Assembly: GCA_965531145.1 (NCBI GenBank)
Contig: CBESOE010000004.1
Span: forward strand, 24,912 to 88,911
Source: an uncultured bacterium
GTDB lineage: Bacteria > Acidobacteriota > JAQAZP01
DNA length: 64,000 nucleotides
Direction: 5' to 3'
The position numbers and the translations under genes are program-made. The first letter of the stretch is position 1. Each line of letters starts with the position of its first letter. Shown piece by piece: positions 3,000 to 59,559 of the stretch. The notes below the pieces were generated by a model that did not search any database, was not told the DNA's origin, and worked only from the letters and a program-made list of their open reading frames with translations.

Positions 3000-3692
3000 T
3001 CAGGGTTTCCTGCCAAAGGTGTAGTTGACTCCCACCATCAGCCGCGGCACAAACTCCGGCTGGTTGATCGCCGCGTTGGCATCGGCATAGGTGTATCCCC
3101 CTCGGGGGTTCACATCGGACCCGTGGGGATTGTACGTGGTGTCGTGGCCGCTGAGCCCCGAAGGGAAGTAGTAGTCGAGCATGGCCGAGAGCACCAGGTC
3201 CACCTTCCGCTTGCTGGACAGGCGGTAGTGCCCCTCCAGCCCCGCCCCGATCCCCCACTGCCTGGAGGTAACGTCGAACTGCTCGTTGCCGCCCACATAG
3301 TGGAAACTGCCGGTGAACTTCGAGTAGCGGGGACCGAGAAAGACGTAAGTCTCGCTGTTCATGAAGAGTTCCAGATCATAGAGCAGGTCGCAGCGCAAAT
3401 CCCAGGCCTCGCCGTCCTCGGTGGGCGTCCCGTTGGTGCCGTCATTGATAAATATCCGGCGGGCCGCCAGCGGGTCTCCGGGATCCCGCTCGGTCCAGGA
3501 GAAGCCGAAGCGGACATCCAGCGGAAAACCTTTGGCAAAATCGGAGAGCGTGGTGTTGAGCATGAAGCCGAAACCCTGGCCATAACCCACCGAGCCGCCC
3601 ACGGCCTTCTCGGTGGCGAACAGGGAGGGGGAAATGAGCAATAAGCATACAATTGTGTAACAAAGCGGGTTCAGGATCGTAATTCTCTTCAT
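3000..3692 (-). CDS. Outer-membrane beta-barrel protein (hypothetical)
   Basis: Signal peptide MKRITILNPLCYTIVCLLLISPSLFA; alternating hydrophobic/aromatic beta-strand pattern with Gly/Tyr-rich segments; AT-rich divergent promoter region 3693-3875. Confidence 0.55.
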   Translation of the reverse strand: MKRITILNPLCYTIVCLLLISPSLFATEKAVGGSVGYGQGFGFMLNTTLSDFAKGFPLDVRFGFSWTERDPGDPLAARRIFINDGTNGTPTEDGEAWDLRCDLLYDLELFMNSETYVFLGPRYSKFTGSFHYVGGNEQFDVTSRQWGIGAGLEGHYRLSSKRKVDLVLSAMLDYYFPSGLSGHDTTYNPHGSDVNPRGGYTYADANAAINQPEFVPRLMVGVNYTFGRKP

Positions 3693-3875
3693 TGTTTTCC
3701 TCTGTAATTTTGGCGCATCAGCCTGATTTTGAATTAATTACAGTTCATAAAGAGCAAACTGGATGCCAGTCTGGTCAGTAACCGGGAACTTTCCCGGGAC
3801 CCGGGCGTTGTGTCAGGTGAATCGGGAATTGAATCGCGGCCCTGGAAGCCGACAGCAACTAACAGATGGAGGAAC

Positions 3876-4763
3876 ATGACGATGCGGATCAAGACACTGA
3901 CCACCCTCTTCTCCCTGACCCTGGTGGCCCTGCTCTCCTGGAGCGCCGGTGCGGCGGTGCTGGCCGACGACGAGGTTCTGGAGCCGGTGCAGGTAGAGCA
4001 GACGATCTGGGTCACCAGCGGTGACGCGGGTGACGAGGACGTGAAAACCTGGACCACCGACAACGGCGAAGTGATCGTGATCAAGGGTGACTGCAAGCTG
4101 GAAACCATCGGCGAAGATGGTGAAAACGTGATGGTCCAGGTCCACGGCTGTGGCGACGGGGACATCCACAAAGTGATCCATATGGGCGGCATGGGCGGCG
4201 AGCCTGTGCAGCGGACCTTTCTCGGCGTGGGGCTGAGCAGCCTGACCCCGGAGCTGCGGGTGCACTTCGGCTCCTCCGAAGGTACAGGCATCATGGTCTC
4301 CAGCGTGGTGGAGGGGAGCCCGGCCGAGGCGGCAGGCCTCCAGGTGGGTGACGTGATCACGGCCATCGGCGGCATCGAGGCCACTTCAGCCTCGGCGGTG
4401 CAGGAAGCGGTGCGCGAGTTGAGCGAAGGCGACACCGCCCTGGTGGAAGTGCTGCGCAACAGTTCACCGATGAGTTTCGAGGCGGTGCTGACCACCAAGG
4501 AACTCCCCGGGTTCGACTTCAACTTCGATTTCGACCATGTGCTGGAAGGTGTGGAAGGCGCGCACCAGTGCATCATCAAGATGAAGAACGGCGACAACGA
4601 GTTCTACTACGACACCGAAAACCTCGACGAGGCCCTGGAGAAGCTCAACGTCTATCTGGAGGGGCCGGAGTTTGAAGAGATGATCGAAAAGCACCAGGCC
4701 AGCGGTGAGGACATCGAAAAGCGCCTCGAGATTATCGAGAAGAAAGTTGAGGAGATCGAATAG
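3876..4763 (+). CDS. Secreted PDZ-domain protein (no protease domain) with an acidic coiled-coil C-terminus; paralog of 5920..6828
   Basis: Start chosen at MTMRIKTLTTLFSLTLVALLSWSAGAAVLA (signal peptide) inside track ORF 3810..4763. PDZ core FLGVGLSSLTPELRVHFGSSEGTGIMVSSVVEGSPAEAAGLQVGDVITAIGG. C-terminal E/K-rich helix. Confidence 0.7.
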   Translation: MTMRIKTLTTLFSLTLVALLSWSAGAAVLADDEVLEPVQVEQTIWVTSGDAGDEDVKTWTTDNGEVIVIKGDCKLETIGEDGENVMVQVHGCGDGDIHKVIHMGGMGGEPVQRTFLGVGLSSLTPELRVHFGSSEGTGIMVSSVVEGSPAEAAGLQVGDVITAIGGIEATSASAVQEAVRELSEGDTALVEVLRNSSPMSFEAVLTTKELPGFDFNFDFDHVLEGVEGAHQCIIKMKNGDNEFYYDTENLDEALEKLNVYLEGPEFEEMIEKHQASGEDIEKRLEIIEKKVEEIE

Positions 4764-4848
4764 AATAGGACCGGTGGATTCCGACCCGGGTCCCGTTGCG
4801 GGGCCCGGGTTCACCTGATCGACCCGGCGCCATAACCGGTGGAGTGAA

Positions 4849-5415
4849 ATGGTGGAGGCAAGTGAAGCAGAACTGATGGCCCGCACCAGGCAGGGGGACG
4901 AAGAGGCCTTTGCCTTGATCGTGGACCGCTTCAAGGACCGGGTGGTCAACTACCTCTGCCGGCTTACCGGGGACCGCGACCGCGCCGAGGACACGGCCCA
5001 GGAAACCTTCCTCCGCCTCTTCCGCACATCATCCGGCTACCGCGAGGAAGGACACCTGGCCGCTTTAATCTTCCGGATCGCCACCAACCTGGTGCGGTCG
5101 GAGGAGCGGCGTAACCGGCGCTGGCGGCTGTTCCGGGCCACGGTGCCCGCAGGGGGGAACGGCAACGGCGGACCGCCCAATCCCCAGACCCGGCTGCTGC
5201 AGCGGGAAGCCGCGGAGCAGCTCGGCGCCGCCATCGGCGAGCTGCCGCTGAAGTTCCGGGCGCCGCTGATGCTGCGGGAGATCGAGGGCCTGTCCTACCA
5301 GGCCATTGCCGAGGCCATCGGCTGCCGGGAGGGAACGGTGAAGTCGAGAATCAACAGGGGCCGGCAACAGCTGCGGGAGCGGCTGGAGCCATACTGGATC
5401 GGAGGGATGGGATGA
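4849..5415 (+). CDS. ECF (sigma-70 family, group IV) RNA polymerase sigma factor
   Basis: Region 2 (DEEAFALIVDRFKDRVVNYLCRLTGDRDRAEDTAQETFLRLFR) and region 4 HTH (REIEGLSYQAIAEAIGCREGTVKSRINRGRQQLRE); 188 aa. Confidence 0.9.
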   Translation: MVEASEAELMARTRQGDEEAFALIVDRFKDRVVNYLCRLTGDRDRAEDTAQETFLRLFRTSSGYREEGHLAALIFRIATNLVRSEERRNRRWRLFRATVPAGGNGNGGPPNPQTRLLQREAAEQLGAAIGELPLKFRAPLMLREIEGLSYQAIAEAIGCREGTVKSRINRGRQQLRERLEPYWIGGMG

Positions 5416-5828
5416 GCGACGAGCGTATCAGCAAAGAGCTCAAAGCGCTGCCCAGGGAGAAGGCGTCGGAGAAGTTCACCCGCCGCGTTCTCGCCAACCT
5501 CCCGCGCACCGAGAAGCGACGGATTCCGGCCTGGGGCTACCGCCTGGCGGCCGCGGCCACGGTGATCATCCTGCTGGTGATCCCGATGAGCCTGCGCCGC
5601 TGGTCCATGTCCATCGATACCGGAAACGAAGCGGTGCTTGCCGAAATCGAGGCGGTCCGCTCGGAAAAGGCGCTGATCGAGAGGGAATTGCGTGACCTGA
5701 GGGAGAAGGCAGCCGAAGAAAGCCCGGTGGTCTACCTCGGCGGCAACGAAGAGGTAAACCTGGTGCTCGACGTGGGCGCCCTGCTCAATCGGAGCACCGA
5801 GGCGAACGAGGGCACATCGGCCTTTTGA
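5412..5828 (+). CDS. Putative membrane-anchored anti-sigma factor
   Basis: ATGA start/stop overlap with the sigma gene; 138 aa; single TM (AAAATVIILLVIPM); cytoplasmic N-terminus, short coiled-coil C-terminus. No zinc-finger anti-sigma motif, so assigned by context only. Confidence 0.55.
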   Translation: MSDERISKELKALPREKASEKFTRRVLANLPRTEKRRIPAWGYRLAAAATVIILLVIPMSLRRWSMSIDTGNEAVLAEIEAVRSEKALIERELRDLREKAAEESPVVYLGGNEEVNLVLDVGALLNRSTEANEGTSAF

Positions 5829-5919
5829 GCGACAGTGAGACGAGAAACGAGAGCACCGGACAACGGTGCCGGAACAGCACGATGCACAACGATCCGAGGA
5901 TCGACGGAGGAACTGAACG

Positions 5920-6828
5920 ATGAAGTGGAACACGTGGAAACTGATCGTCACCGGCTGCACCCTGGCCGGTCTGGCCCTGTTTACGTCCGTGGCGCCGGCC
6001 GCGGTGCTCCCCGACGACGAGACAGGCACCGCCGGCGAGCAGGAGAAGGCGGTGGTCAAGGTGAAGGAGATCCGCGCTGACGGCGCGACCAAGATCAACG
6101 TCAAGGTCGTGGGGGACCATGATGGTGAGCATGTGGTCCACTGGGTGGGCTCGCCGGCCAATCGGGGTTTTCTCGGCGTGGCGTTGAACTCGCTGAGCCA
6201 TGATCTGCAGAAGCACTTCGGCGCGGCCGAAGGCAGCGGAGTGATGGTGGGCTCGGTGGTGGAGGGCAGCCCGGCCGAGGCCGCCGGCATCAGGGTGGGC
6301 GACGTGATCACCGCCATCGACGGCGCTGACGTGGCGTCGCCCTCCGACGTCCAGCGGATCATCCGCGAGAAGGAGGAGGGAGAGGCCGCCACCATCGCGC
6401 TGGTGCGGAGCGGCGCCCCGCTGACCGTCACGGCCACGGTGGGCGTGAAGGAGATGCAGGAATTCGACATCGGCATGCTGGGCGATATCGGGGACCTGAA
6501 AAAGAAGGCGTTCTTCATTTCCAGCGGCATGGAAGGCGGGAACATGGTCTTCGAAACCGTGGACGGCAATGTCACGGTGGACCTGACCGAGGAGATGGAT
6601 AAACTGGAGAATATTTTCATCGAAAAACTCGGCGATTCCGACGACCTGATCTACTTCGACACCGAGACCTTCAACGATTCGATGAAGGAAGTGCACGAAT
6701 ACCTGGCCAGCCCCGAGTTCCAGGAAAAGCTGAATGGTCTGCAGGAGCGTGAACTGGAGCTGCAGCAGCGGCTGGAGGCCCTGGAACTGAAACTGGAGAA
6801 ACTGGAAGAAGTGCACGAAGAGCAGTAG
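5920..6828 (+). CDS. Secreted PDZ-domain protein with coiled-coil C-terminus; paralog of 3876..4763
   Basis: Signal peptide MKWNTWKLIVTGCTLAGLALFTSVAPAAV. PDZ core FLGVALNSLSHDLQKHFGAAEGSGVMVGSVVEGSPAEAAGIRVGDVITAIDG, collinear with the first paralog. C-terminus ELELQQRLEALELKLEKLEE. Confidence 0.7.
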   Translation: MKWNTWKLIVTGCTLAGLALFTSVAPAAVLPDDETGTAGEQEKAVVKVKEIRADGATKINVKVVGDHDGEHVVHWVGSPANRGFLGVALNSLSHDLQKHFGAAEGSGVMVGSVVEGSPAEAAGIRVGDVITAIDGADVASPSDVQRIIREKEEGEAATIALVRSGAPLTVTATVGVKEMQEFDIGMLGDIGDLKKKAFFISSGMEGGNMVFETVDGNVTVDLTEEMDKLENIFIEKLGDSDDLIYFDTETFNDSMKEVHEYLASPEFQEKLNGLQERELELQQRLEALELKLEKLEEVHEEQ

Positions 6829-6980
6829 CTCCGCCACTCCGTCGATATGCTGAAAGCCTCCCGACCCCCACGGGCCGGGAGGCTTCTCTTTGTACGGCCG
6901 GTAATTGACAGTGCGGGAATATCCACTATGCTGATCCTTGGGAATCGAAGATTCGAAAAACATATTTCTCTGGTGGTGTA

Positions 6981-9266
6981 ATGATGAACTCCCGTCCTTT
7001 CATGTTGTTCCTGCTTCCGACCCTGCTCGTCCTGGCTGCGCTCCTCACTGCCGGTCCGGCCGTGGCCGAACCCTACGACGCCAGCGGGATCGAGCCCCTG
7101 CGCTGGACCGGCCCGGAGCCGCCCACTTCGTATACCGAGTGGTCAGCCGGCCAGATCAGGGAGCCGTTCAGCATCCACCCGCTGGAATGGATGACGGCGG
7201 AAAGCAACGGCAGCGACAACGGTGCCGGCAGCAACGTCCTGGTGATGGTCAACGAGGGACTGCGGCCGGCCATCGAAGCCAACCTCAACCGCTATGTGGG
7301 AGACATCGCCAGTGGCGGGTGGAGCCCGCAGGTCTACGAGACCGCCGGCGGCACGCCGGAGATCCTCAAGTCGTTCATCATCGACCACTCCGCAGACCTG
7401 GCGGCAGTGGTCTTCTTCGGCCGGATGCCCACACCGTGGTACGAGTCGGACGAGGAGTTCCCCTTCGACTATTTCTACATGGAACTGGACGGGGAATGGA
7501 TCGACGCCGACGAGGACGGCATCTACGACGGGCTGGAGGATGGCGCGGGCGACCAGGGGCCCGAGATCTTTGTCGCCCACATCGATTCATCGATGATGAC
7601 CTGGTGGGATGAGGCGGAGTCGGTGAACCGCTACCTGGACAAGGACCACGAATTCTGGAGCGGCGGGATCACTTGCACCGACTACGGCCTGACCTACACC
7701 GAGGACGACTGGGCCAGCGGGGACGACATCTGCACGGCCATGCGCTACGCCTACCCGTCATACCACGAGATCCGCGCGCCGGAAACCCACCGCGACGACT
7801 ACGTGCTGAACCGGCTCCCCGAACCGGCCTACGAGTTCATCCAACTGGCCTGTCACTCCTGGTCCGGCGGCCACGGGTTCACCCGCGGCGGTGACGCCAG
7901 CAGCTGGCGGGTGGCCAGCACCGAACCGGAGGCCCTGTTCTACAACCTTTTCTGCTGCAGCGCCCTGCGCTGGGTCGAGGAAAACCACCTGGGCGGGGCC
8001 TACATCTTCAATCCCGGCACCACCTGCCTGGCCACACTGGGAAGCACCAAGAGCGGCTCGATGCTCAACTTCAGCTGGTTCTACGAACCGTACGGCTCCG
8101 GCGCCTCCCTGGGTGAGTCGCTGCGGATCTGGTTCGACGAAGTGGCCCCGTTCGAGCAGTGGGAGATCGACTGGCACATGGGGATGTCGATCACCGGCGA
8201 CCCCTTTCTCAACCGGACCAACAGTTCGCCGGTGAAACCGCAGATCATCACCGGGCCCGGTCCGCTGGCCGGCCAGGACCCCTTTGTCCGGGGCTACGGC
8301 GTTGACGGCGTACCCCGCCCCTGCACCGAGTTCGACCCCTATGTCTGGCTCAACGGATACGGTACGCGGGTGGCTGTGGGCGACCTGGATGCCGACGGTC
8401 TGATCGACATCGTCACCGGCACCGGCCCCGGGCCCGAACTGGCGCCGGTGGTCCGGGCCTACGACCTGGGCGGGACCCATCATGCCGGTTCGAACTTCCG
8501 CCCCTACGGCACCAGCGGCTGGGGCGTGGAGGTGGCCTGCGGCGACCTTGACGGCGACGGCCGCGACGAGATCGTCACCGGGCCCGGGCCCGGGCCGGTG
8601 GCCGGGCCCCATGTCCGGGCGTTCACCTGGGACGGTGAAACCGTGGCGCCGCTGGCGGGAACGAACTTCCAGGCCTACGGCACACCGCGCTATGGTGTGG
8701 AGGTGGCCTGCGGCGACCTGGACGGTGACGGCTTCGACGAGATCGTCACCGGCGCCGGGGCCGGAGCGGTCTTCGGGCCCCACGTCAGGGGCTGGAACGT
8801 GGACGGCGGGCCGGCCACGGCCATCCCGGGAGTCAGCTTCTTTGCCTACAACACGCTCCGCTGGGGCGTCAACGTGGCCTGCGGCGACCTCGATGGGGAC
8901 GGCATCGATGAGATCGTCACCGGACCCGGCCCGGGGCAGATCTTCGGGGCCCACATCCGGGCCTGGCGAGTCAGCGGCGGCAGTTGCAGCCCCCTGCCCG
9001 GGGCCAGCCTGCTGGCCTACCCAGGGGGCATGCGCTACGGCGCACGGGTCGCCTGCGCCGACATCGACGGTGACGGCCGCGACGAAATCATCACCGCCCC
9101 GGGGCCCGGCCCGGAGAACAGCGCCCACATCCGCGGGTTCGAATATGCCGGCGGCACCCTGGCCCCCCTGACCACGCCGGACTTCATCGCCTGGTCAGCT
9201 GAGGAGTACCGCGGTGGTTCGCTGCTGGCAGCGGTGGACCTGGAGAGCGTGATCAGGCTTCGCTGA
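6981..9266 (+). CDS. Secreted protein: N-terminal caspase-fold (clan CD; C25/gingipain-like) cysteine-peptidase-like domain plus C-terminal seven-blade FG-GAP beta-propeller
   Basis: Signal peptide MMNSRPFMLFLLPTLLVLAALLTAGPAVA. Candidate His-Gly / Cys dyad spacing ...ACHSWSGGHGF...(26 aa)...NLFCCSAL. C-terminal 7 repeats of ~65 aa, e.g. YGVEVACGDLDGDGRDEIVTGPGPGPVAGPHVRAF. Protease assignment is by motif only. Confidence 0.7.
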   Translation: MMNSRPFMLFLLPTLLVLAALLTAGPAVAEPYDASGIEPLRWTGPEPPTSYTEWSAGQIREPFSIHPLEWMTAESNGSDNGAGSNVLVMVNEGLRPAIEANLNRYVGDIASGGWSPQVYETAGGTPEILKSFIIDHSADLAAVVFFGRMPTPWYESDEEFPFDYFYMELDGEWIDADEDGIYDGLEDGAGDQGPEIFVAHIDSSMMTWWDEAESVNRYLDKDHEFWSGGITCTDYGLTYTEDDWASGDDICTAMRYAYPSYHEIRAPETHRDDYVLNRLPEPAYEFIQLACHSWSGGHGFTRGGDASSWRVASTEPEALFYNLFCCSALRWVEENHLGGAYIFNPGTTCLATLGSTKSGSMLNFSWFYEPYGSGASLGESLRIWFDEVAPFEQWEIDWHMGMSITGDPFLNRTNSSPVKPQIITGPGPLAGQDPFVRGYGVDGVPRPCTEFDPYVWLNGYGTRVAVGDLDADGLIDIVTGTGPGPELAPVVRAYDLGGTHHAGSNFRPYGTSGWGVEVACGDLDGDGRDEIVTGPGPGPVAGPHVRAFTWDGETVAPLAGTNFQAYGTPRYGVEVACGDLDGDGFDEIVTGAGAGAVFGPHVRGWNVDGGPATAIPGVSFFAYNTLRWGVNVACGDLDGDGIDEIVTGPGPGQIFGAHIRAWRVSGGSCSPLPGASLLAYPGGMRYGARVACADIDGDGRDEIITAPGPGPENSAHIRGFEYAGGTLAPLTTPDFIAWSAEEYRGGSLLAAVDLESVIRLR
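8229..9266 (+). repeat. Coding tandem repeat: 7 x FG-GAP blades (C-terminal propeller module, copy 1 of 3 in the window)
   Basis: Repeating GDxDGDGxDEI[VI]TG[PA]GPG...GPHVR[AG][FW] units; homologous modules at 9941..~11030 (-) and 57161..~58230 (-). Confidence 0.75.
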
Positions 9267-9303: not shown

Positions 9304-9831
9304 CTAGAACCCCACCCCCACTCCCACACGGTAAACCCACGGTGAGTTGTAGGAACTGTAAGGATCACCACTGTCATAAAGGAAATCGTAGAGCACCGAG
9401 AAATTGATCGCCGCGTGATCGCCCAGGGGCTGGGAGAACCCGCCGCCGCCCAGCAGACCGTTGTGGTTGGTGCGCTCGGTGCTGCCGTTCAGGGTGTAGT
9501 ATTCGTAGTTCAGGTAGTCGTACTCACCCTGGACGAAGATGTGCGGTATCACGTGGTAGCGGAGAAAAAGCCCACCGCCGTAATCGCTGGTGGAGAGGCT
9601 TGGCGAATACCGGCTGTCCTTGCGGTAACGGTAGGTCAGCCGCAAACCGGTGGCCAGCTTATCCACCGGGTAAAATCCCACCGTGGGTGAAAACTCGACA
9701 AAATCCACCGTGCCGAAGCCGGCCCCGAACCAGCCGCCCCAGAACATGTTCTTGTCCCCCCGCTCCCCGGCACCGGCCACGGTACTCAGGGTGAGAACCA
9801 CGAGCACGATCAAAACAATTCTGCATTTCAT
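9304..9831 (-). CDS. Small outer-membrane beta-barrel protein (OmpW/opacity-like, hypothetical)
   Basis: Signal peptide MKCRIVLIVLVVLTLSTVAGA; Gly/Tyr/Phe-rich strand pattern; C-terminal ...RVGVGVGF (terminal Phe typical of OMPs). Confidence 0.6.
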   Translation of the reverse strand: MKCRIVLIVLVVLTLSTVAGAGERGDKNMFWGGWFGAGFGTVDFVEFSPTVGFYPVDKLATGLRLTYRYRKDSRYSPSLSTSDYGGGLFLRYHVIPHIFVQGEYDYLNYEYYTLNGSTERTNHNGLLGGGGFSQPLGDHAAINFSVLYDFLYDSGDPYSSYNSPWVYRVGVGVGF

Positions 9832-9940: not shown

Positions 9941-11030
9941 TCAGAAGCGGCCAGCGGCCACGGTGGCCCCGTGACTCATACCGGAGAAGCTCTCCAGGGT
10001 GGCCCAGGAGGTAACCTGGCTGCCGTCATAGCTGAAGACCGACACCGTGCTGCCCACCAGCGGGTCGGGGCCCAGACCGGCCACGATCTCGTCCCGACCG
10101 TCGCCGTCCAGGTCGGCCCGGGCGCTGACGTTCGCACCGAAGCGGTTCTCCGGCCAGGAGAAGGCGAAGAAGCTGAGACCGGGCAAGGGACTGATCCCGC
10201 TGCCGTCGTGGTTCCAGCCGCGGACGTGGGCGCCGAACACCGCCCCCGGCCCGGGTCCGGTGACGATCTCGTCGATGCCGTCGCCGTCCACGTCACCGCA
10301 GGTCACGTTCACCCCGAACTGGTTGGTGGAGTATGCGAAGTAGCTCACGCCGGGGATCGACGCTGCTGCCCCACCATCCACGTTCCAGCCCCGCACGTGG
10401 GGGCCGTAGACCGTGCCCGGGCCGGCGCCGGTGACGATCTCGTCGTAGCCGTCGCCGTCGATATCGCCGGTGCAAACGTTGACTCCCCACTTGGGCGTGC
10501 CGTAGGCAAAGTAGTTCACCCCGGACAGTGCGGTCACCCCTGAAGTGCCGTCATAGTCCCAGGCGCGCACATGGGGCCCGAACACCGCGCCGGGGCCGGC
10601 GCCGGTGATGATCTCGTCGAACCCGTCACCGTCGATGTCGCCGGCAGCAGCGTTCACCCCGTATTTGTTGGTGCCGTAAGCGAGGAAGCTCAGGCCGGGA
10701 AGCGGCGTGCCGTCGATGTCGAAACCCCGCACGTGGGGCCCGTAGATCGCCCCCGGTCCGGCACCGGTGAGGATCTCGTCCAGGTCGTCGCCGTCCAGGT
10801 CGCCGGCGCCCACGTTCACCCCGAAGCCGTCAGCGCCATAGGCCGCAAACTCGTAGAGGTGCACCGCCCCGCTCTGCGGGGGAAAGACTCGCACGTCGGG
10901 CGGGTTGGTTTCGGACGGGCCGGGGCCGGTGATGATCCGCGGCGCACTGAGGTCGCCACCCGGCTCATAGAGCGGCCGCTCGAAAATGCCGTTGCCATGG
11001 GTCGCCGCGCGGAGCAGCCGGTCCGGGGCG
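9941..11030 (-). repeat. Coding tandem repeat: FG-GAP blades (C-terminal propeller module, copy 2 of 3)
   Basis: Same repeat family as 8229..9266, in opposite orientation on the other side of the small OMP gene. Confidence 0.75.
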
Positions 11031-13255
11031 TAGACCTTGAGGTCGTTGATCATGGCCGGACCCATCCCTTCCTGGAAGCTGTACCAGGTCTGGCCGCTGT
11101 CCGGCGAAAGATAGACCCCCAGATCGCCGCCCACATAGACCACCTGCGGGTGGAGCGGATCCACCATCACCGCCGAGGTGGGGACGTCGGGCAACCCCTG
11201 GCCGATGTCGGACCAGCTGTCACCGCCGTTGACACTGCGGAAGACGTGGCTGGTGCCGTAGCCCATGATGGTGGCGTAGACCACGCTGCTGTCGCTGGGA
11301 TCCACGGTGAGATCGGTGATGTAGCGGTCGGGCAGGCTGCCGGTGACTTCCTCGAAGGTGTCACCATTGGTGGTGCGGTAGACCCGCGCCCGGTCGGTGT
11401 TCGCGGCAGTGGCGACGTAAACCACATTTTCGTCGGTGGCCGAGATGGCCATGCACATGGCCGCGTTGATGCCGTTCAACGTGCTGCCGCCATGGATGGA
11501 GTCCCAGTCAAAGCCGCTATTGGTGCTTTTATAGACCCGGGAGCGGCCAGCGTAAACCACATCCGGGTTGGAGGGACTGAGCACGAAGGGCGCGATGAAG
11601 GCGGTGTTCTCGCCGCCGGTTTCCGGGGGGGCGATATAGTTCCAGTAGGCACCGTCGTTGGAGGTGCGTTGCAGGTAGAGGAACTGCGCCGAACCGTAGA
11701 GGATGTCGTCATCCTGAGGATTCACCGCGGTCCAGGATCCGTCGCCGCCGATCACCCGCTCCCAGGCCGGGCCGCCGCGGTAGATGGCGGTGGCGGTGTC
11801 CTGCATCCCGCCGATCAGCTTGTCCCGGCTGGTGGCCGACAGGCCCATGCCGTTGTAGAACTGGGTGGTGATATAGCCGCCGATCAGGCTGGCAAAGCTG
11901 TCGCCGCCGTCGGTGCTCTTGAACACCCCGCCGTCGGAGCAGAAGAAGATGGTGTTGGGGTCGGTGGGGTGCCAGAAGGCGTTGTGGTGGTCGGCGTGAG
12001 CGTAGTCGGAACCACCGATGGGGCCTTCCGGGGGTGGTGTACCGTAATACATGCTGGTCCAGTCCGACCGCCGGGAGAAGGAACTCCCGCCGTTGGTGGA
12101 GCGATGGATCTCGATGCCGGCCACGAAGACCAGGTTCACGTCAAAGGGGCTGGGCAGCACGTAGTGCGAGTAGAAGCCCTGGTATTGCTGGTAGTCGCCG
12201 CCGTAGGCCTGCACCCAGGTGTCGCCGGTGTCGGTGGAAAGGTAGAGCCCGCGGCCCGACTCGGTGTTGCCGATACTGGCGTAAATCCGGTTTGGCTGAG
12301 GGAGGGCAATGGCCAGCTGGGTCTTGCCGCTCCAGGAGGCGGGCAGGCCGTCGGTCAGTTTGGTCCAGCTGTCGCCGCCGTCGGTGGTGCGGTAGATCCC
12401 GTGGTTTTCCGAGCTGAAGTTGCCGTGGGCGCTGAACACGGTCTCCGGGGTGGTGGGGTGGATCCGGATGTCGGTGCCCATGATCACGTCGTGCACCAGG
12501 GTCCAGTCACCGCCGGCATTGGTCGACTTGTAAATCCCCTCGGTGGTGGCGGCATAGACGATATTGGAATCGGTGGGGTGGACGGCGATCATCCAGACCC
12601 CGCGGTTCTGGTCATAGCTCCAGTCGAGGCTCTGGGTCCAGCTGGCCCCACCGTCAGTGCTCTTGAGGATGCCGATGCCGTAGCTGCCGCGGGTCAGGCG
12701 GTTCAACTCGCCGCCGTCGGAAGCCTGGTAGCGGTAAACCTCGCCGGTGCCGATATAGATCACGCTGCTGTCGGCGGGATCGAGGGTGACAGTGCTCACC
12801 GCCAGGATGGGGTAGCCGGTCTCAACCCGGTCCCAGGCGTCGGCCCCCACCCCGCCCACGGTGGTCTTCCACAGCCCGCCGCTGGCGCTGCCGGCAAACA
12901 TGGTCTGAGGGTTGTCGGGATCGATGGCCAGGGTGAGGGTGCGGCCGCCGATGTTGTACGGCCCGAGCACGCTCCAGGAATCGGCACCCCGGTCGCCGGT
13001 GGCGGCGTCCTCCACCCGGGGGATCAGCTTCGACTGCTCCCACGCCCGGCCAAATCCGCCGGCCGGGATCAGGTTCCCGGGATAGGCCCGCTGAGCGGCC
13101 CAGAGATCGAGCGCCTGGAGGGCGCCGCTGTATTTCAGTTGCGGCTGATCCTGCTCCACGCCGGCCGGCGGCAGCAGGAAAACCAGGGCCACAACGGTCA
13201 ACACCGCCGTGGCCGTCCACAAACGCCCGTCACTGATACTGCGTATCATCGTCAC
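9941..13255 (-). CDS. Secreted BNR/Asp-box (sialidase/GH74/sortilin-like double beta-propeller) protein fused to a C-terminal FG-GAP beta-propeller
   Basis: N-terminal TM/signal region, then >10 Asp-box motifs (STDGGASW, STNAGGDW, TTDGGDSW, STDTGDTW, STNGGSSF, STDGGDSF, STNSGFDW, SVNGGDSW, SPDSGQTW). C-terminal FG-GAP blades (GVNVGAGDLDGDDLDEILTGAGPGAIYGPHVRGF...) ending ...HGATVAAGRF. Confidence 0.8.
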   Translation of the reverse strand: MTMIRSISDGRLWTATAVLTVVALVFLLPPAGVEQDQPQLKYSGALQALDLWAAQRAYPGNLIPAGGFGRAWEQSKLIPRVEDAATGDRGADSWSVLGPYNIGGRTLTLAIDPDNPQTMFAGSASGGLWKTTVGGVGADAWDRVETGYPILAVSTVTLDPADSSVIYIGTGEVYRYQASDGGELNRLTRGSYGIGILKSTDGGASWTQSLDWSYDQNRGVWMIAVHPTDSNIVYAATTEGIYKSTNAGGDWTLVHDVIMGTDIRIHPTTPETVFSAHGNFSSENHGIYRTTDGGDSWTKLTDGLPASWSGKTQLAIALPQPNRIYASIGNTESGRGLYLSTDTGDTWVQAYGGDYQQYQGFYSHYVLPSPFDVNLVFVAGIEIHRSTNGGSSFSRRSDWTSMYYGTPPPEGPIGGSDYAHADHHNAFWHPTDPNTIFFCSDGGVFKSTDGGDSFASLIGGYITTQFYNGMGLSATSRDKLIGGMQDTATAIYRGGPAWERVIGGDGSWTAVNPQDDDILYGSAQFLYLQRTSNDGAYWNYIAPPETGGENTAFIAPFVLSPSNPDVVYAGRSRVYKSTNSGFDWDSIHGGSTLNGINAAMCMAISATDENVVYVATAANTDRARVYRTTNGDTFEEVTGSLPDRYITDLTVDPSDSSVVYATIMGYGTSHVFRSVNGGDSWSDIGQGLPDVPTSAVMVDPLHPQVVYVGGDLGVYLSPDSGQTWYSFQEGMGPAMINDLKVYAPDRLLRAATHGNGIFERPLYEPGGDLSAPRIITGPGPSETNPPDVRVFPPQSGAVHLYEFAAYGADGFGVNVGAGDLDGDDLDEILTGAGPGAIYGPHVRGFDIDGTPLPGLSFLAYGTNKYGVNAAAGDIDGDGFDEIITGAGPGAVFGPHVRAWDYDGTSGVTALSGVNYFAYGTPKWGVNVCTGDIDGDGYDEIVTGAGPGTVYGPHVRGWNVDGGAAASIPGVSYFAYSTNQFGVNVTCGDVDGDGIDEIVTGPGPGAVFGAHVRGWNHDGSGISPLPGLSFFAFSWPENRFGANVSARADLDGDGRDEIVAGLGPDPLVGSTVSVFSYDGSQVTSWATLESFSGMSHGATVAAGRF

Positions 13256-16007: not shown

Positions 16008-16469
16008 ATGGACAACAAGCCGATCATTTTCACCGTGGGCCACTCGTCACTTGAGGAGGAGGCCCTGCTGCGTCTGCTCTCGGCCCACGGGGTGAAGGCC
16101 GTGGCCGACGTGCGCAGCGTCCCCGCATCCGGCCGGCACCCGCAGTTCAACCGGCGGGGGTTCGAGCCGTTTCTCGAGAAGGCCGGATTCCGCTACCTCT
16201 GGCTGGGGCGAGAACTGGGCGGGCTGCGAAAAGGGATGACCTACCAGGAGCACATGTCGACGGAACTCTTTTCCACCGGCCTCGAGGTCCTGGAATGCAT
16301 GGGCCGGGTGCGCCGCACCGCCATCCTCTGCGCCGAGCGGCACCACACCGACTGCCACCGCAAGCACATCGCCGACGCCCTGGTCCGCAGGGGGTGGCGG
16401 GTGGTGCACATCACCGAAGAAAATCGGGCGGAAGACCACCAGCTGCAGCAAACGCTGTTCGACAGCTAG
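16008..16469 (+). CDS. DUF488 family protein
   Basis: MDNKPIIFTVGHS... start motif and ...ILCAERHHTDCHRKHIAD motif typical of DUF488; track ORF begins at 15972, so start uncertain. Confidence 0.65.
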   Translation: MDNKPIIFTVGHSSLEEEALLRLLSAHGVKAVADVRSVPASGRHPQFNRRGFEPFLEKAGFRYLWLGRELGGLRKGMTYQEHMSTELFSTGLEVLECMGRVRRTAILCAERHHTDCHRKHIADALVRRGWRVVHITEENRAEDHQLQQTLFDS

Positions 16470-17806
16470 TCCGGATTCCCCACCACCACCAGGACGTAGC
16501 GGCCGGCGTCGAGGAAACGGCGACCTGTCTCCAGAGCCGCGGCGGCATCCACATCCTTCAGAGTCTCGATGTGGTCGAGGACGTATCGATCGCCCAGGCC
16601 GAGCATCCGTGCTGAAATCATCATCCCGGCCAGCCCGTCCGGTGTGGCCGAGGCCAGCTCGTAGCTGCCGATCAGGTATTCCCGTGCCTCGGCCAGTTCC
16701 TGCAGGGTGATCCCGTCTTTCAGCAGTCGTTCCAGCTCACGGAGGATCAGGGCGGTGGCGGCATCGGTGCCGGCGCTGGCCGTGGCGGTGGCGATGGTGA
16801 TCGGGCCGGCAGTGAGCCCGGCGCTGGCCGAGGAGTTGATCCCATAGGTCCGGCCCTCCTCCACCCGCACCGCCTGCATCAGCCGCGAGGAGAACCCGCC
16901 ACCACCCAGCACGTAATTGAAGACCTGGAAGCGCTCCCAGTCCGGATCGGTGCGCCGGATTCCGGGCCAGCCGAGAGTGATGCTCGACTGGGTCAGGCCC
17001 TTCATCGAGACTCGGACCACCCGCGGCTTTTCCAGCGTCACCCGTGGCGCCGGGACGGGCGGGAGGAGTTCTCCCGGTTCCCACTTCCCTGCCGTCTCAT
17101 TGACCGCGGCGATAAAACGATCGGACTTGATGTTTCCCACCACCACCAGCTGCGCTCCATCAGTACCGTAATAGCGGGCAAGTCGCTCCCCCGCATCCTT
17201 CAGGCCCGTGCGGCCCAGGGTGCGCCAGGTGGCGTTGCGACCCAGGGGGTGGTCTTCCCCGTACAGTTCGATCATCAACCGGCGACGGGCCACCGCACCG
17301 GGCCTGCTCTCATCCAGTTTCAGCTCCCCGCGCAGGCGATCCCGGGCGCGGGTAAGGTCAGCCTTGTCTATCCGTGGGTCGGCCACGGTCTGCACCAGCA
17401 GTTCCAGAAGCCGTTCGAAATCGGCGGCCAGTCCGCGGATCCAGAAGACCGTGTAATCGTTGGTGACGTAAGCGCCCGTCTGGCCACCCAATGCCTCCAC
17501 CTGGCCCGCACGAACGTCGCTGAGGGTACGGGCCAGCAGCTCGGCCATCCCCTCCTTACCCTGGGGGTCGTGCAGGCGGCCCACCGGCAGGCCCAACCGG
17601 AGGGTCACCAGGGGCAGTTCATCGTATCCGGCAAGTTGGCCGTGCAGCCCGTTCTCCAGATTCACCACGGCGATGATCCCTGACTCGACCATCAGGGCTG
17701 CCGCCGGCACGTCGCTGAACAGGGCCACGCAGACGGGGATGAGGCAGAGCAGCAGACTGCCCACCACCAACCGGCCAGCGTGACTGTTTGACAGGTGCCT
17801 CACCAC
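16466..17806 (-). CDS. M16 family (pitrilysin-like) peptidase, likely non-catalytic partner subunit
   Basis: 446 aa with M16 N/C domain architecture but no HxxEH motif; adjacent to the HxxEH-containing M16 gene; signal/TM at N-terminus. Confidence 0.75.
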   Translation of the reverse strand: MVRHLSNSHAGRLVVGSLLLCLIPVCVALFSDVPAAALMVESGIIAVVNLENGLHGQLAGYDELPLVTLRLGLPVGRLHDPQGKEGMAELLARTLSDVRAGQVEALGGQTGAYVTNDYTVFWIRGLAADFERLLELLVQTVADPRIDKADLTRARDRLRGELKLDESRPGAVARRRLMIELYGEDHPLGRNATWRTLGRTGLKDAGERLARYYGTDGAQLVVVGNIKSDRFIAAVNETAGKWEPGELLPPVPAPRVTLEKPRVVRVSMKGLTQSSITLGWPGIRRTDPDWERFQVFNYVLGGGGFSSRLMQAVRVEEGRTYGINSSASAGLTAGPITIATATASAGTDAATALILRELERLLKDGITLQELAEAREYLIGSYELASATPDGLAGMMISARMLGLGDRYVLDHIETLKDVDAAAALETGRRFLDAGRYVLVVVGNPD

Positions 17807-17807
17807 C

Positions 17808-19247
17808 CTACCTCCCCAGCAGGCTCTTCAGAATCCCGAAGATCCAGTAAGTGAACCGGAACTCATCTGGTTTGATCCAGCCCACCACCGCGTTCTCCTC
17901 CGCCAGGTAGATCGCGGCCACCCGCCGCACGTCCCCGGCGGTCACCGCCTCGATGCGGGCCACGTGGTCCGCGAACCGTTCCGCATCCCCCTCGATCACC
18001 GTTGCCCACCCCAGGGCGCTGGCCGCCCCCTCCGGGCCGGAGAGGCCGAAGAGCCGGCGGACCAGCAACCGGCGGCGGGCCTGCCCAAGCTCGTCTTCCG
18101 GAACATCCTCTTCGCGCAGCCGGCGGACCTCCTCCCACATGGCCCGCTCCACAGTCTTTGATCGCACCGAGGGGAGGAAGACGGCAAAGGCCACCAGGCC
18201 GGAGGGGTCGATGGTGCGCTCGAAAATGGTGTCGACGTAGACCGCCAACCGCTGCTCGCGGACCAGGCTGTTGGTCAGCCGCGCCCGGCTGCCACCGGTG
18301 AGCAGTTCGCGGACAACCTCCAGGGCGGGGTAGTCCGGGTGTGAGGCCTCGGGTGTATGAAAACCGAGGCCCACCACCGGTACCTCCACCGGCAGTTCCA
18401 GGGTGTGGCGGGCCAGTTCCTCACCATAGGGCTCCGGTGTTGGCGACGGGCGCTCCAGTGCCGCGCCCACCGGCACCGGCCCGAAGTGGCGGCGAACCAG
18501 TTGCTCGACTTCGAGCTTGTCCACACTCCCGGCCACCACCAGCACCGCATTGCCCGGCTGGTAGTAGCGGTGGTAGAAGTCGCGGCACTGCTCCACGGTG
18601 AAGCTGTTCAGCTGCTCGGCATCACCCAGCACATCGTGGCGGTAGGAGTGGACGGTGAAGAAGAGTTTCTTGTACCAGGAATAGGCAGCGCCCAGCTGGT
18701 CGTTCTCCATCCGCAGCCGCAGTTCCTCCAGCACCACTTGGCGCTCGGTATCCAGCATCCCGGCGTCCAGGGCCAAATTGGCCATGCGATCCGCTTCCAG
18801 CTCCAGGGCCAGTTCCAGGCGCTGCGCCGGCAGGGTCTCGTGGTAAACGGTGACGTCCTCGCTGGTCCAGGCGTTGCTCCGCCCCCCCACCGCCTGGATC
18901 CGGCGGATGAACTCCTCGGGGCCCACCGTGTCGGTCCCGCGAAACATCATGTGTTCGAAGAGGTGGGCCAGGCCGTGCTCACCCTCCCCCTCGTCCCGGC
19001 CGCCCACGCGGTACCAGACCTGCACCGCCACCGCCCCGGAAGATTCGTCGGGAAGCACGAGGACTTCGAGGCCGTTATCCAGAGTGAAGGTATGGAGGGG
19101 ATCGCAGAACGCTGGTGGGACAACAGCACAGGCAAGAAGGAGGGAGAGAAGAAGAAAAAATCGGGGACAGGCACCGCTGCCCTTCGGGAATCGTTGCCAG
19201 TCCCCATTTTTTCCAGTCCCCATTTTTGACAACGAAAAGGCCGTCAT
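17808..19247 (-). CDS. M16 family zinc metallopeptidase (insulinase-like), catalytic subunit
   Basis: Inverted zinc motif HLFEHMMFRG (HxxEH); signal peptide ...PRFFLLLSLLLACAVVPPAF; GAGG-type RBS before ATG at 19247. Confidence 0.85.
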   Translation of the reverse strand: MTAFSLSKMGTGKNGDWQRFPKGSGACPRFFLLLSLLLACAVVPPAFCDPLHTFTLDNGLEVLVLPDESSGAVAVQVWYRVGGRDEGEGEHGLAHLFEHMMFRGTDTVGPEEFIRRIQAVGGRSNAWTSEDVTVYHETLPAQRLELALELEADRMANLALDAGMLDTERQVVLEELRLRMENDQLGAAYSWYKKLFFTVHSYRHDVLGDAEQLNSFTVEQCRDFYHRYYQPGNAVLVVAGSVDKLEVEQLVRRHFGPVPVGAALERPSPTPEPYGEELARHTLELPVEVPVVGLGFHTPEASHPDYPALEVVRELLTGGSRARLTNSLVREQRLAVYVDTIFERTIDPSGLVAFAVFLPSVRSKTVERAMWEEVRRLREEDVPEDELGQARRRLLVRRLFGLSGPEGAASALGWATVIEGDAERFADHVARIEAVTAGDVRRVAAIYLAEENAVVGWIKPDEFRFTYWIFGILKSLLGR

Positions 19248-23548: not shown

Positions 23549-23911
23549 ACCGCGACCCCGCTTCACGCGCTGCGGGCGGTGCCTGTGGTACACGATTTTC
23601 ACGTCAGCCATGCTCTCATACTCGAACAGCGTTCCGACGCTGTCACCCGGTGAAACCACCAATTCTTCCTGACGATGAGTAAGTACAAAGTCAAGTTTGC
23701 CCCGATTCGGCATCCGGTGCAAGCCGCAGCGCCACCAGGACCGTGACAAAACCATGACAAAATCAGTCAATTATTCCTGGCGAACCGGCTACAATAAACC
23801 TATATATGAAAACAGCCGCACCAAATGCCTTGCCAGAAAACCGAGTACTGATTCACGCGGGGTGGTAAGCTTTTTATAAGCCTTGCCTGCCGCCCAGGAT
23901 GGGGGCCACCC

Positions 23912-57160: not shown

Positions 57161-58230
57161 TTAAAATCCACCGGCAGCCACAGTCGCTCCATATTTCCAA
57201 TCGGCGGGAAAGGCCTGCAATGAAAACTGCAGGTGCATCCGGGACCCGTCATAACTGTACACATTGACCGGTGATCCGGTTGACGGGTCCGGCCCGGGGC
57301 CCACCACCACTTCATTCCGCCAGTCACCGTCCAGATCGGCGGTGGCACAGACCTTCGCCCCGTACCGCACCTGGCTCGGCAACCAGGCAAAGAAGTTGAA
57401 CCCCGGCAGTTCGGTCACCGCTGTCCCGTCGTAGTTCCAGCCCCGGACATGGGCCCCGAAGGCCGCACCCGGGCCCGCACCGGTGACCAGCTCGTCCAGC
57501 CCGTCACCGTCCACGTCACCACAGGTGACATTCACGCCGTATTCGTTGGTCCCGTATGCGAAGAAACTCACCGCCGGAATGGCCTCGGCCGGACCGCCGT
57601 CCACATTCCACCCCCTGACGTGGGGACCGAATATCGTACCGGGCCCGGCGCCGGTGACGATCTCGTCATACCCGTCGCCGTCGATGTCCCCGGCGGCCAC
57701 GTTCACCCCCCACTGGATGGTACCGTAGGCAAAAAAGTTGACCCACGGGGATGGGGCCGCACTGCCGCCGCCGCCGTACTGGACCAGGTCGAACGCGCGG
57801 ACGTGCGGGCCAAAAACCCGCCCCGGTCCGGCGCCGGTGATCACCTCCCACGCCTCGTCATCGTCGATATCACCGGCACAGACGTTCACCCCGTATCGGG
57901 GTGTGCCGTAGGCAAAGAAGTTGAGCCCGGGCACCGGCACCCCATCCACCGTGAATCCCCGAACGTGGGGGCCGTAGATCTCACCAGGCCCGGCGCCGGT
58001 GAGCACTTCATCCACCTGGTTGCCGTCCACATCGCCGCAGCTCACATTTACTCCGTGGCTGGGGGCGCCATAAGCGGTGAACTCGCTGGTGTGGGTTGCG
58101 TCCTGCTGTGGCGGGAAGGTGCGCACCAGGGGCGGATTGGTGAGGCCCGGGCCAGGGCCGGCGACCAGGCCGGGGGTGGTGATCGGCGATGATTCACCCT
58201 TGTACAGCGCACTGTAATGCCGGGTCAGGT
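57161..58230 (-). repeat. Coding tandem repeat: FG-GAP blades (C-terminal propeller module, copy 3 of 3)
   Basis: Same family as 8229..9266 and 9941..11030; produces the antisense ORF 57449..58192 (+) in the track. Confidence 0.75.
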
Positions 58231-59549
58231 TGATGAACTGGTCGTTGTACTCGGCGGAGTCGCAGACATCAGTCCCCTCGTAGAACTCGTTCCAAGTCTC
58301 GATGGCGATCATCGGTACCCCCGAGGCGATGGCCGCTTCCCAGCTCTGCCGGTAATAGCGTCCGCCCTCCCGGTCGCGGTAAGAAGGCGGGTAGCGCACC
58401 GATGAATCATCGTACCCCGGACCCACGGCAGCGGTCTCCAGCAGTCGGGGCCCGTTCAGCGCCGCCCCCCACTGGTAACGGCTGTCGGTATCCACATTCC
58501 AACTGGCCTCCCGTACGATATACGGGGCCACACCGAATTGAAGCTGGAACTGCTCCTCCAGCTGATCGATGGACCACTGGTTGTAGTTGCCGGCAAAGTG
58601 GCTGGCGTACAACTGGATCAGCGGGCGGCCGTCCACCGTGGCCCGCAGCTCGTCCGGCACCATGTCGAAAAAGTCTCGTACCGTCCGCCAGAAAAATCCG
58701 TGCGGTTCCGCGGCGGTGATGTCCAGACCGGGGTTGAGGCTGGCCTCGTACGATTCATCGACGAACTGCAGCATTGCGTCTCGCGAGCCGCCCCCGGTGA
58801 GAAAGTCGAGCCAGTAGAGATATCCCGTGCTGTCCGGTTCCCGGCCGAGGATCAGCTCGAAGGTGTCGTTGACGAATTCGGTGTCGCTGACGATCAGTGC
58901 GCCGTAAGCCGGGGAGTCGAGAATGCCGCCGATGAACTCCCGTCTGGTAATCCCCCCCCAGCCCAGGGCCAGCACCCCCTCCTCCAGTTCGAACAGATCG
59001 GGCGTGCGGTTGAGCAGCACCGTGTAGCAGCGGATAACAAAGTGGCTGTCCGACAGGAACTGCACCGCCCGGTAGCTGCAGCGCACGTAACGGTGCTGGT
59101 CGTAGTCGTAGGTCACCGGGTTCATGGTCAGGGTGACCGTGTCGTAAAACATGCCGATCTTCGGCGGAGTCTCCCCCGCGGCCGCCATCTGCTGCGCGGC
59201 CTGCACCAGCAGTTCCAGGCCTTCATTGCTCCAGTAGTTGTAGCGGGCGGCGCTGTGCGGAAAGCCCCAGTAGACCGGCAGCACCACGTCAATGCCGGCC
59301 TCGCTCATCCGGCGGAGATTGAAGGTGTACCAGGGCAGGGATCTCCACCAGAGGGGGGTCCCGGCAGGGAGCCAGGGGTGGTCGGACATCTCCCCCGGAT
59401 TCTCGTGATACCAGTAGAAGAAGTAGGTGGTGACCAGCTTCTCGTCCACCGGCACCGTGTCCGGCTCCGCCGAGAGAGGCACCGTAACCAGGACAAAACA
59501 GACCAGACAGAAACCTGCAATGTGCAACGATCTGGTCAGGCCGGCCATG
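57161..59549 (-). CDS. Secreted protein: N-terminal glycosidase-like domain with a DUF4214 insert plus C-terminal FG-GAP beta-propeller
   Basis: Start at MAGLTRSLHIAGFCLVCFVLVTVPLSA (signal peptide) inside track ORF 57161..59719. DUF4214-like LGREPDSTGYLYWLDFLTGGGSRDAMLQFVDESYEA. C-terminal blades GVNVSCGDVDGNQVDEVLTGAGPGEIYGPHVRGF ... ending KYGATVAAGGF. Confidence 0.75.
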
Positions 59550-59559
59550 TCGACATTCT

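Follow-up and report, generated by a model that had tools for sequence, protein, structure and literature searches.

Modules composed of an extracytoplasmic function (ECF) sigma factor and its anti-sigma factor are among the main ways in which bacteria sense their envelope. In the well-studied modules, the PDZ domain that reads the signal is fused to a protease, as in DegS, AlgW and RseP. The CnrH-CnrY-CnrX module of Cupriavidus metallidurans combines an ECF sigma factor with a very short membrane anti-sigma factor (CnrY), whose cytoplasmic part consists of two helices, and with a periplasmic partner that is encoded in the same operon, controls the anti-sigma factor and is not a protease. The PDZ domains of DegS and AlgW bind C-terminal aromatic peptides (PMC8103513, PMC8545111), and in the MucE/AlgW system proteolysis of the anti-sigma factor is governed by an HtrA-type PDZ domain whose ligand is an aromatic protein C-terminus (PMC8545111). 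The rpoE-rseA-mucD operons of Xanthomonas campestris and Stenotrophomonas maltophilia, and the algU-mucABCD operon of Pseudomonas aeruginosa, have an autoregulated promoter of the sigma-E type (PMC4229105). Here, we describe a locus in a 64,000-nucleotide (nt) stretch of DNA from an uncultured bacterium of the Acidobacteriota (contig CBESOE010000004.1, positions 24,912 to 88,911; the whole stretch is referred to as the window), in which an ECF sigma factor and a putative anti-sigma factor are encoded together with two secreted proteins, PDZ1 and PDZ2, that carry a PDZ domain and no protease domain. Judged by its gene content and its linkage in related genomes, this module is a real, strictly conserved new variant of the sigma-E-type modules.

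The operon and its conserved core

Positions 3785-6893 of the window constitute one operon on the + strand. It begins with an ECF-type promoter, continues with the genes of PDZ1, the ECF sigma factor, a single-pass anti-sigma-like protein and PDZ2, and closes with a terminator-like hairpin. Its features are listed below, with the basis of the assignment in brackets where one applies (aa, amino acids).

3785..3809, + strand: ECF-type promoter motif GGAACTTTCCCGGGACCCGGGCGTT, with -35 GGAAC, a 16-nt spacer and -10 CGTT
3876..4763, + strand: PDZ1, secreted PDZ-only protein of 295 aa, first gene of the operon
4783..4811, + strand: GC-rich 13-bp hairpin between the PDZ1 and sigma genes, lacking a U tract (RNA fold)
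4849..5415, + strand: ECF (group 4) sigma factor of 188 aa (Pfam, NCBIfam)
5412..5828, + strand: putative single-pass anti-sigma factor of 138 aa (position, coupling, topology)
5920..6828, + strand: PDZ2, secreted PDZ-only protein of 302 aa (Pfam)
6852..6893, + strand: terminator-like hairpin followed by a U-rich tract, end of the operon (RNA fold, consensus scan)

A first-pass annotation of this DNA had proposed the same four genes on the + strand, with a coupled sigma/anti-sigma pair, and the present analysis agrees with it. The ATG of the 138-aa protein overlaps the stop codon of the sigma gene (ATGA), an arrangement by which the protein is translationally coupled to the sigma factor. The intergenic gaps beside the PDZ genes are shorter than 100 nt. 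The mechanically called open reading frame (ORF) of PDZ1 starts at a GTG at position 3810, while its orthologs start at the ATG corresponding to 3876 or 3882; the start was taken as 3876, because the GTG overlaps the promoter and the orthologs begin at one of these two ATG codons.

The first-pass annotation had also envisaged a five-gene synteny that included both PDZ copies and a divergent gene for an outer membrane protein (OMP). Comparison with related loci did not support a unit of this size. The conserved core is, by this comparison, a triad composed of the sigma factor, a short membrane anti-sigma factor and a secreted, protease-less HtrA-type PDZ protein with a long C-terminal helix. 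In close relatives (PDZ2 orthologs 65-97% identical), the order PDZ1, sigma, anti-sigma, PDZ2 is retained, and in more distant relatives the three-gene unit sigma, anti-sigma, PDZ is found. The divergent OMP-like gene is kept next to the operon in locus L001 alone, and orthologs of PDZ1 are limited to L001, L002/L003, L004/L009 and L037. PDZ2 corresponds by position to the one PDZ gene of the triad and is its ortholog; the upstream copy arose, judging from this distribution, by a duplication confined to the clade that comprises the window, L001, L002 and L004.

The linkage within the triad is strict. A genome scan seeded with the most conserved motif of the anti-sigma protein yielded 26 loci, 24 of which have Acidobacteriota or a class within it in their titles (Thermoanaerobaculia for the most part, Holophagales once). 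Genes for the sigma factor, the anti-sigma factor and a PDZ-only protein of 227-330 aa were found in that order in all 30 genome or encoding-contig loci with downstream DNA, as determined by ORF-level phmmer searches. A metagenome scan added 43 loci, with the PDZ gene present in each of the 35 that extend at least 450 nt downstream. The gene also accompanies distant members of the anti-sigma family picked for their non-aromatic tails (3/3); in one of these a frameshifted assembly had hidden it, and it was recovered by tblastn. Altogether, the gene immediately downstream of the anti-sigma gene encodes a PDZ-only protein in every one of the 68 related loci, a total built from partly redundant sets, in which all named loci belong to Acidobacteriota, mostly Thermoanaerobaculia. 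Acidobacteriota are a dominant and poorly studied soil phylum. Secreted and protease-less, as the first-pass annotation took them to be, the PDZ proteins are genuine, conserved and tightly linked to this sigma/anti-sigma pair. The two-PDZ proteins of Pyrinomonadaceae, which are abundant and match PDZ2 in the PDZ domain only, served as a control and were not adjacent to sigma genes; as candidates for wider relatives they were rejected on account of this missing ECF linkage.

The promoter is conserved together with the genes. An invariant island, CCGGGAACTTTC...CCGGGCGTTGTG...GTGAAT, lies upstream of PDZ1 between diverged flanks in the window, L001, L002 and L004, and the promoter motif is situated inside it. 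In each of 32 loci, the exact pattern GGAAC-N16-CGTT occurs a single time ahead of the first gene of the operon. In a second set, it is located at most 200 nt upstream of the sigma gene in 24 of 25 further loci, the only exception being L037 (the window's own copy), where the motif precedes PDZ1. With L037 counted, all 57 loci for which upstream DNA is available have the exact pattern, and in the window's clade it is placed before PDZ1. Its AAC-containing -35 element, CGT-containing -10 element and spacing are, at the level of sequence, those of the classic ECF promoter architecture; a sigma-E-type promoter upstream of PDZ1, for which the first-pass annotation had suggested a search, is thus present and conserved. 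Because the motif is conserved before the first operon gene, the sigma factor probably drives its own operon, i.e., the operon is autoregulated. From the position of the motif in the window's clade, the PDZ1 gene is inserted there between the promoter and the sigma gene. No further copies of GGAAC-N16-CGTT, which would mark possible regulon members, were detected in the 64-kb window with one mismatch allowed.

Two hairpins were predicted within the transcript. The spacer between the PDZ1 and sigma genes (4761-4850) folds with -40.8 kcal/mol (z -2.2). L002 and L004 retain the stem of its hairpin, with compensatory substitutions at the foot, and L001, whose PDZ1-sigma spacer measures 22 nt, has no such hairpin. 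This structure could set the ratio of PDZ1 to the products of the downstream genes. At the end of the operon, the region 6826-6900 folds with -31.1 kcal/mol (z -2.9), and a consensus scan also marked positions 6872-6885 as terminator-like. Opposite the operon genes lie long antisense "shadow" ORFs, 287-441 aa in length, at 3734-4597 (-), 5295-6620 (-) and 5785-6963 (-); ORFs of this sort typically arise in high-GC DNA, and these do not represent genes.

The encoded proteins

The sigma factor matches Pfam Sigma70_r2 and Sigma70_r4_2, and scores 74.1 bits against NCBIfam TIGR02937 (sigma70-ECF; cutoff 42.9). With sigma-2 and sigma-4 domains only, and with a length inside the range of ~170-200 aa, it belongs to the ECF (group 4) sigma factors. 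No equivalog-level NCBIfam model was reached.

PDZ1 and PDZ2 are 33% identical over nearly their full length (E 2e-45), and their alignment extends to a C-terminal block outside the PDZ domain, Y[FY]DTE...PEF. They are, on this similarity, true paralogs, as had been proposed along with their secretion, their single PDZ domain and their acidic C-terminal helix, all of which were recovered here. Both N-termini, as read from the sequence, contain a hydrophobic signal sequence with an AxA-type site, followed by AVL(A/P)DDE. The mature N-terminal region comprises ~50 residues and precedes one PDZ domain and the C-terminal helix, which is acidic and heptad-like in both proteins. Searches against Pfam returned the PDZ_2, PDZ_6 and PDZ models and no others for PDZ1, and PDZ models alone for PDZ2. 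In an AlphaFold2 (AF2) model of PDZ2, the PDZ domain (residues 78-182) is confident, with a predicted local distance difference test score (pLDDT) of ~85-97; residues 265-301 form one helix of moderate confidence, and the N-terminal strands and the 183-255 linker have low confidence.

The PDZ domain could be assigned to a known type. Searches of PDB sequences with phmmer, and of PDB structures by Foldseek with the AF2 model of PDZ2, placed the PDZ1 domains of DegP-like proteases, DegQ, MucD, AlgW and DegS at the top, and a family profile compared by hhalign aligned to DegQ residues 254-349 (its PDZ1 domain) alone. The carboxylate-binding loop R-G-[FY]-L-G-V is near-invariant across the PDZ-only family and belongs to the domain at 78-182 of PDZ2. 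By these resemblances, the domain is a peptide-binding one of the HtrA PDZ1 type. Neither Trypsin nor Trypsin_2 (Pfam) was matched by PDZ1 or PDZ2, so that a trypsin-like protease domain with its catalytic triad is absent from both. No Peptidase_M50 match (Pfam) was obtained, and the metalloprotease core of RseP is likewise lacking; the RseP models of NCBIfam align to the PDZ region only, below cutoff. One stretch of the N-terminal region had resembled a protease strand in phmmer (-2.2 bits) and was considered as an HtrA remnant; hhalign showed no such alignment, and the candidate was dropped. In the source annotations, several PDZ-only proteins (P0001, P0004, P0008, P0012 and others) bear the misleading names "membrane-associated protease RseP" or "serine protease Do"; on several of them the RseP name originates from JGI.

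The 138-aa protein matched no Pfam or NCBIfam family. Its AF2 model (mean pLDDT 85) consists of two short N-terminal helices, a long helix (residues 41-102) that comprises the membrane span and a periplasmic part of ~40 residues, a beta-hairpin (106-120), a helix (121-132) and a floppy tail ending in TSAF. The hairpin (PVVYLGGNE-V-LVLD) is the most conserved motif of the family, PVVYLGGxExVxLVLD. A fold search of this model against PDB gave no match with E <3. The predicted cytoplasmic part is ~30 residues long and, with only two short helices before the membrane span, does not form the four-helix domain of class I (ZAS-type) anti-sigma factors. Residues 1-40 are free of any Cys or His motif, whereas that class often has an HxxxCxxC zinc motif, and neither zf-HC2 nor RsiW was matched in Pfam. 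Neither the window protein nor any of 50 members of its family gave an RseA match in Pfam, and thus there was no sign of RseA/MucA homology by this measure. Presumably, the two-helix cytoplasmic part is closer to the class-II anti-sigma domains (CnrY, NepR) than to the four-helix zinc type.

A profile search of 1.84 billion representatives showed that the family comprises at least 731 representative clusters at 50% identity with E <=1e-3, 363 of them at E <=1e-10. None of the 50 members compared with Pfam exceeded the threshold of any model, and the matches to DUF5056 and RskA_C were weak and sub-threshold only; together with the ATGA overlap and the single-pass topology, they fit a putative anti-sigma function. 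Source names are "hypothetical" and occasionally "anti-sigma factor RsiW" or "cell division protein FtsB" (e.g., P0291, P0311, P0371). By these profile searches, this is a large, unnamed family that has no Pfam model.

Possible roles of the PDZ proteins

We tentatively favor a role of the PDZ protein as the periplasmic partner of the anti-sigma factor, which docks on it, shields it from a site-1 protease and is displaced by the C-termini of envelope proteins. In this scheme, the anti-sigma factor would hold the sigma factor at the membrane through its two short N-terminal helices, in the class-II (CnrY/NepR-like) mode rather than that of the four-helix zinc type. In the periplasm, the PDZ protein or proteins would dock on the exposed parts of the anti-sigma factor (the long helix, the beta-hairpin and the flexible tail), whose end in this organism, ...TSAF-COOH, is of the kind bound by HtrA-family PDZ domains. 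The docked protein would shield the anti-sigma factor from a separately encoded site-1 protease, as RseB and MucB do for RseA and MucA. Free C-termini of unassembled envelope proteins would then compete for the PDZ groove and uncover the anti-sigma factor, leading to its degradation and to release of the sigma factor; induction of the operon would yield more anti-sigma factor and PDZ protein and so reset the switch. Among the explanations considered, this one is the most likely, being supported by the gene content, the translational coupling, the strict linkage, the promoter, the PDZ type, the accessible tail and the precedent for binding. A more specific version is possible, if somewhat doubtful: the PDZ-only proteins may be dedicated periplasmic sensors of this unnamed family of short anti-sigma factors in Acidobacteriota, which read C-termini, including the tail of the anti-sigma factor, and gate it by shielding or exposing it and not by cutting. 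A DegS-like input would in that case be separate from proteolysis and, in the window's clade, split between two specialized paralogs.

The tail of the anti-sigma factor was examined as a candidate PDZ ligand. In the window, it ends in ...EGTSAF-COOH and is predicted to be disordered (AF2), and therefore accessible. An F or Y closes the protein in 27 of the 32 genome loci and 39 of the 42 from metagenomes; the genome sample is skewed, both by the pattern used for the search and by a single abundant subgroup. That subgroup, from Thermoanaerobaculia, ends in a conserved ...PAAYHxETF. In the diverse family, a motif [RQ]PAx[YF] is common 0-20 residues from the C-terminus, and the window protein stops exactly at its aromatic residue. 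A tail-in-groove interaction is plausible, on these sequence patterns, for the window's clade and the ETF subgroup. The idea of a universal C-terminal PDZ ligand on the anti-sigma factor was abandoned, as only 23% of the ends are aromatic in a diverse set.

Several observations weigh against the favored role. Among 149 diverse anti-sigma representatives, from which the 23% derives, the last residue is R in 36, L in 24, Y in 21, P in 17 and F in 12. The L001 ortholog (65% identity) has no tail altogether, and the PDZ partner is still linked where the anti-sigma end is non-aromatic; tail binding is therefore not the universal basis of the partnership. The 138-aa protein is itself a putative anti-sigma factor, an assignment based on its position, its coupling and its topology. 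The 28 window ORFs scanned against Pfam include neither a site-1 nor a site-2 protease gene. Finally, the PDZ gene occupies the place of mucD in the rpoE-rseA-mucD operons (PMC4229105), which fits an output or feedback function equally well.

Such a function is the core of a serious alternative, which we regard as somewhat less likely than the favored role: the PDZ protein would be a MucD/HtrA descendant minus its protease, making no contact with the anti-sigma factor and acting as a periplasmic holdase whose PDZ domain captures exposed C-termini of misfolded envelope proteins and whose C-terminal helix serves for oligomerization. As the main product of an autoregulated operon, it would sequester peptides, protect the envelope and lower the inducing signal (negative feedback). 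Beyond the position of the gene, the PDZ1 domains of MucD, DegQ and DegP among the best PDB matches, the single ECF promoter ahead of all the genes with no second copy of the motif in 64 kb, and a linkage that is independent of the anti-sigma tail sequence are all consistent with this explanation. However, the absolute linkage to one anti-sigma family (68/68) is tighter than a generic quality-control factor needs, and other PDZ-only proteins, the two-PDZ proteins of Pyrinomonadaceae, show no sigma linkage; no precedent was found for chaperone activity of so minimal a protein, with a single PDZ domain and no cage-forming protease body. An adaptor function is improbable. Here the PDZ protein would be a positive regulator that recognizes the anti-sigma tail or [RQ]PAx[YF] and delivers the anti-sigma factor to a separately encoded site-1 protease (HtrA/DegS or Prc/CtpA), amounting to a DegS-like sensor-protease in two polypeptides. 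The HtrA PDZ1 type of the domain and the accessible, often aromatic tail would suit this task, and the C-terminal helix could mediate assembly with another protein, but a protease gene is linked in none of the examined loci and is not found among the 28 scanned ORFs, and a positive regulator inside an autoinduced operon would cause runaway activation unless balanced.

A role in metal or redox sensing, in which the Cys and His residues in the N-terminal part of PDZ1 (HGCGDGDIHKVIH), together with HxxH in PDZ2, would bind metal or act as a redox switch and signal to the short anti-sigma factor in a CnrX-like manner, is very improbable because these residues are not conserved. The Cys/His cluster noticed in the first-pass annotation does exist in PDZ1, an H-x2-3-H pair is retained in most clade orthologs of both paralogs, and the short, two-helix cytoplasmic part predicted for the anti-sigma factor recalls that of CnrY. 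Conservation of the cluster was not borne out: His90 and Cys92 are replaced in the L002 ortholog, just the last two His of the string are retained within the window's clade, and the wider triad family has neither Cys nor His at these positions. Moreover, the N-terminal region has low confidence in the AF2 model, and nothing CnrX-like was found in the PDZ-only family. The pseudogene view, by which an HtrA protease gene was disrupted and the PDZ genes are its decaying pieces, is effectively refuted; the first-pass annotation had named it as a way in which its reading could fail. It could draw on the best partial NCBIfam matches, which are HtrA/DegP models, yet these cover the PDZ part only and lie far below cutoff. 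Full-length homologs with a signal peptide (227-330 aa, 30-97% identity) are conserved in dozens of genomes, the hhalign match reaches no further than the PDZ1 domain of DegQ with no trace of trypsin, and the gaps between the genes are too short to hide a protease remnant.

Genomic surroundings and comparison with known modules

The gene divergent from the operon (ORF 3000-3692, -) had been called an OMP gene; the ORF is there, and its match to OMP_b-brl is sub-threshold (17.6 bits against a cutoff of 28.7). It ends in ...NYTFGRKP, an OMP-like YxF plus four extra residues, and together with ORF 9304-9831 (-) it represents small beta-barrel-like ORFs with signal peptides and no confident family. 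PDZ2 is followed in the window by a 152-nt gap (6829-6980), which contains the terminator-like hairpin, and by an FG-GAP protein gene; there is no response-regulator gene at this place. In three relatives, a gene for a ~300-aa protein with Response_reg as its sole Pfam match lies directly 3' of PDZ2 (L001 6963-7856, L002 7107-8024, L004 7103-8020). In four three-gene loci, a convergent gene resembling 2-oxoacid dehydrogenase E1 or transketolase is located directly downstream of the PDZ gene (L006 5910-6830, L008 5794-7899, L080 4359-6423, L081 4247-5170); L080 is from Thermoanaerobaculia, and L006, L008 and L081 are metagenome contigs. The window encodes four large FG-GAP-rich proteins, at 6981-9266 (+), 9941-13255 (-), 20729-23770 (-) and 57161-59719 (-), one of which has PEGA and one DUF4214/GH99-like parts. 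Similar FG-GAP repeat genes flank the operon in relatives, where the homolog of the second (9941-13255) gives Sortilin/BNR matches. The neighborhood is thus rich in such repeat proteins, and it also has envelope genes, which encode a TonB-dependent receptor, FadL, an O-antigen ligase and a heptosyltransferase. An adjacent pair of M16 (insulinase-type) peptidase genes at 16466-19247 (-) supplies the sole protease genes among the 28 ORFs scanned against Pfam, with no RseP-, DegS- or Prc-like gene among them.

In this locus, a PDZ domain of the type used by the well-studied modules is a separate secreted protein, invariably encoded with one unannotated family of short anti-sigma factors that comprises hundreds of clusters and belongs to Acidobacteriota where named. 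With this module, one can test directly whether gating of an anti-sigma factor by a PDZ domain is possible when no protease is attached. If the PDZ protein does control the anti-sigma factor directly, it would show signal recognition uncoupled from proteolysis, and the module would provide a compact and orthogonal switch of three parts, with GGAAC-N16-CGTT as its defined promoter, that could be studied or engineered. Should it be no more than a feedback factor or holdase, the analysis would still correct database names ("RseP", "FtsB", "hypothetical") and define a new anti-sigma family. A full-text literature search brought up no report of an ECF/anti-sigma pair with a PDZ-only partner, and an entry in the ECF Hub is possible; the words "PDZ", "HtrA" and "trypsin" do not occur in the main text of the ECF re-classification paper.

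In its working, the present module would resemble the sigma-E/RseA and AlgU/MucA systems (PMC8103513, PMC8545111). Its logic would also match that of CnrH-CnrY-CnrX. The partner differs: it is a PDZ protein, unrelated in sequence to metal sensors of the CnrX/CpxP kind, and a metal-binding motif is not conserved in it. With MucE/AlgW the module shares an aromatic C-terminus and an HtrA-type PDZ domain, but the aromatic C-terminus is located on the anti-sigma factor itself (in the window's clade and the ...ETF subgroup), and the PDZ domain has no attached protease. The sigma-E/RseA/RseB system of Escherichia coli, with DegS and RseP, resembles it in the ECF sigma factor, the co-transcribed single-pass anti-sigma factor, the GGAAC-type promoter before the operon, the HtrA-type PDZ domain for binding peptides in the periplasm and the operon-encoded periplasmic accessory protein (PMC8103513). 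It differs in that the PDZ protein described here is free-standing, secreted, protease-less and equipped with a long C-terminal helix, while an RseB homolog is absent and the anti-sigma factor has no RseA_N match and only ~30 cytoplasmic residues. The rpoE-rseA-mucD and algU-mucABCD operons are alike in gene order, with genes for the sigma factor and the anti-sigma factor followed by one for a PDZ-bearing periplasmic protein of the HtrA family (PMC4229105), and the PDZ1 domains of MucD and AlgW are among the best structural matches of PDZ2. MucD, however, combines a trypsin domain with PDZ domains and is a complete protease, whereas the proteins described here carry no protease, and in the window, unlike in rpoE-rseA-mucD, a second PDZ copy precedes the sigma gene.

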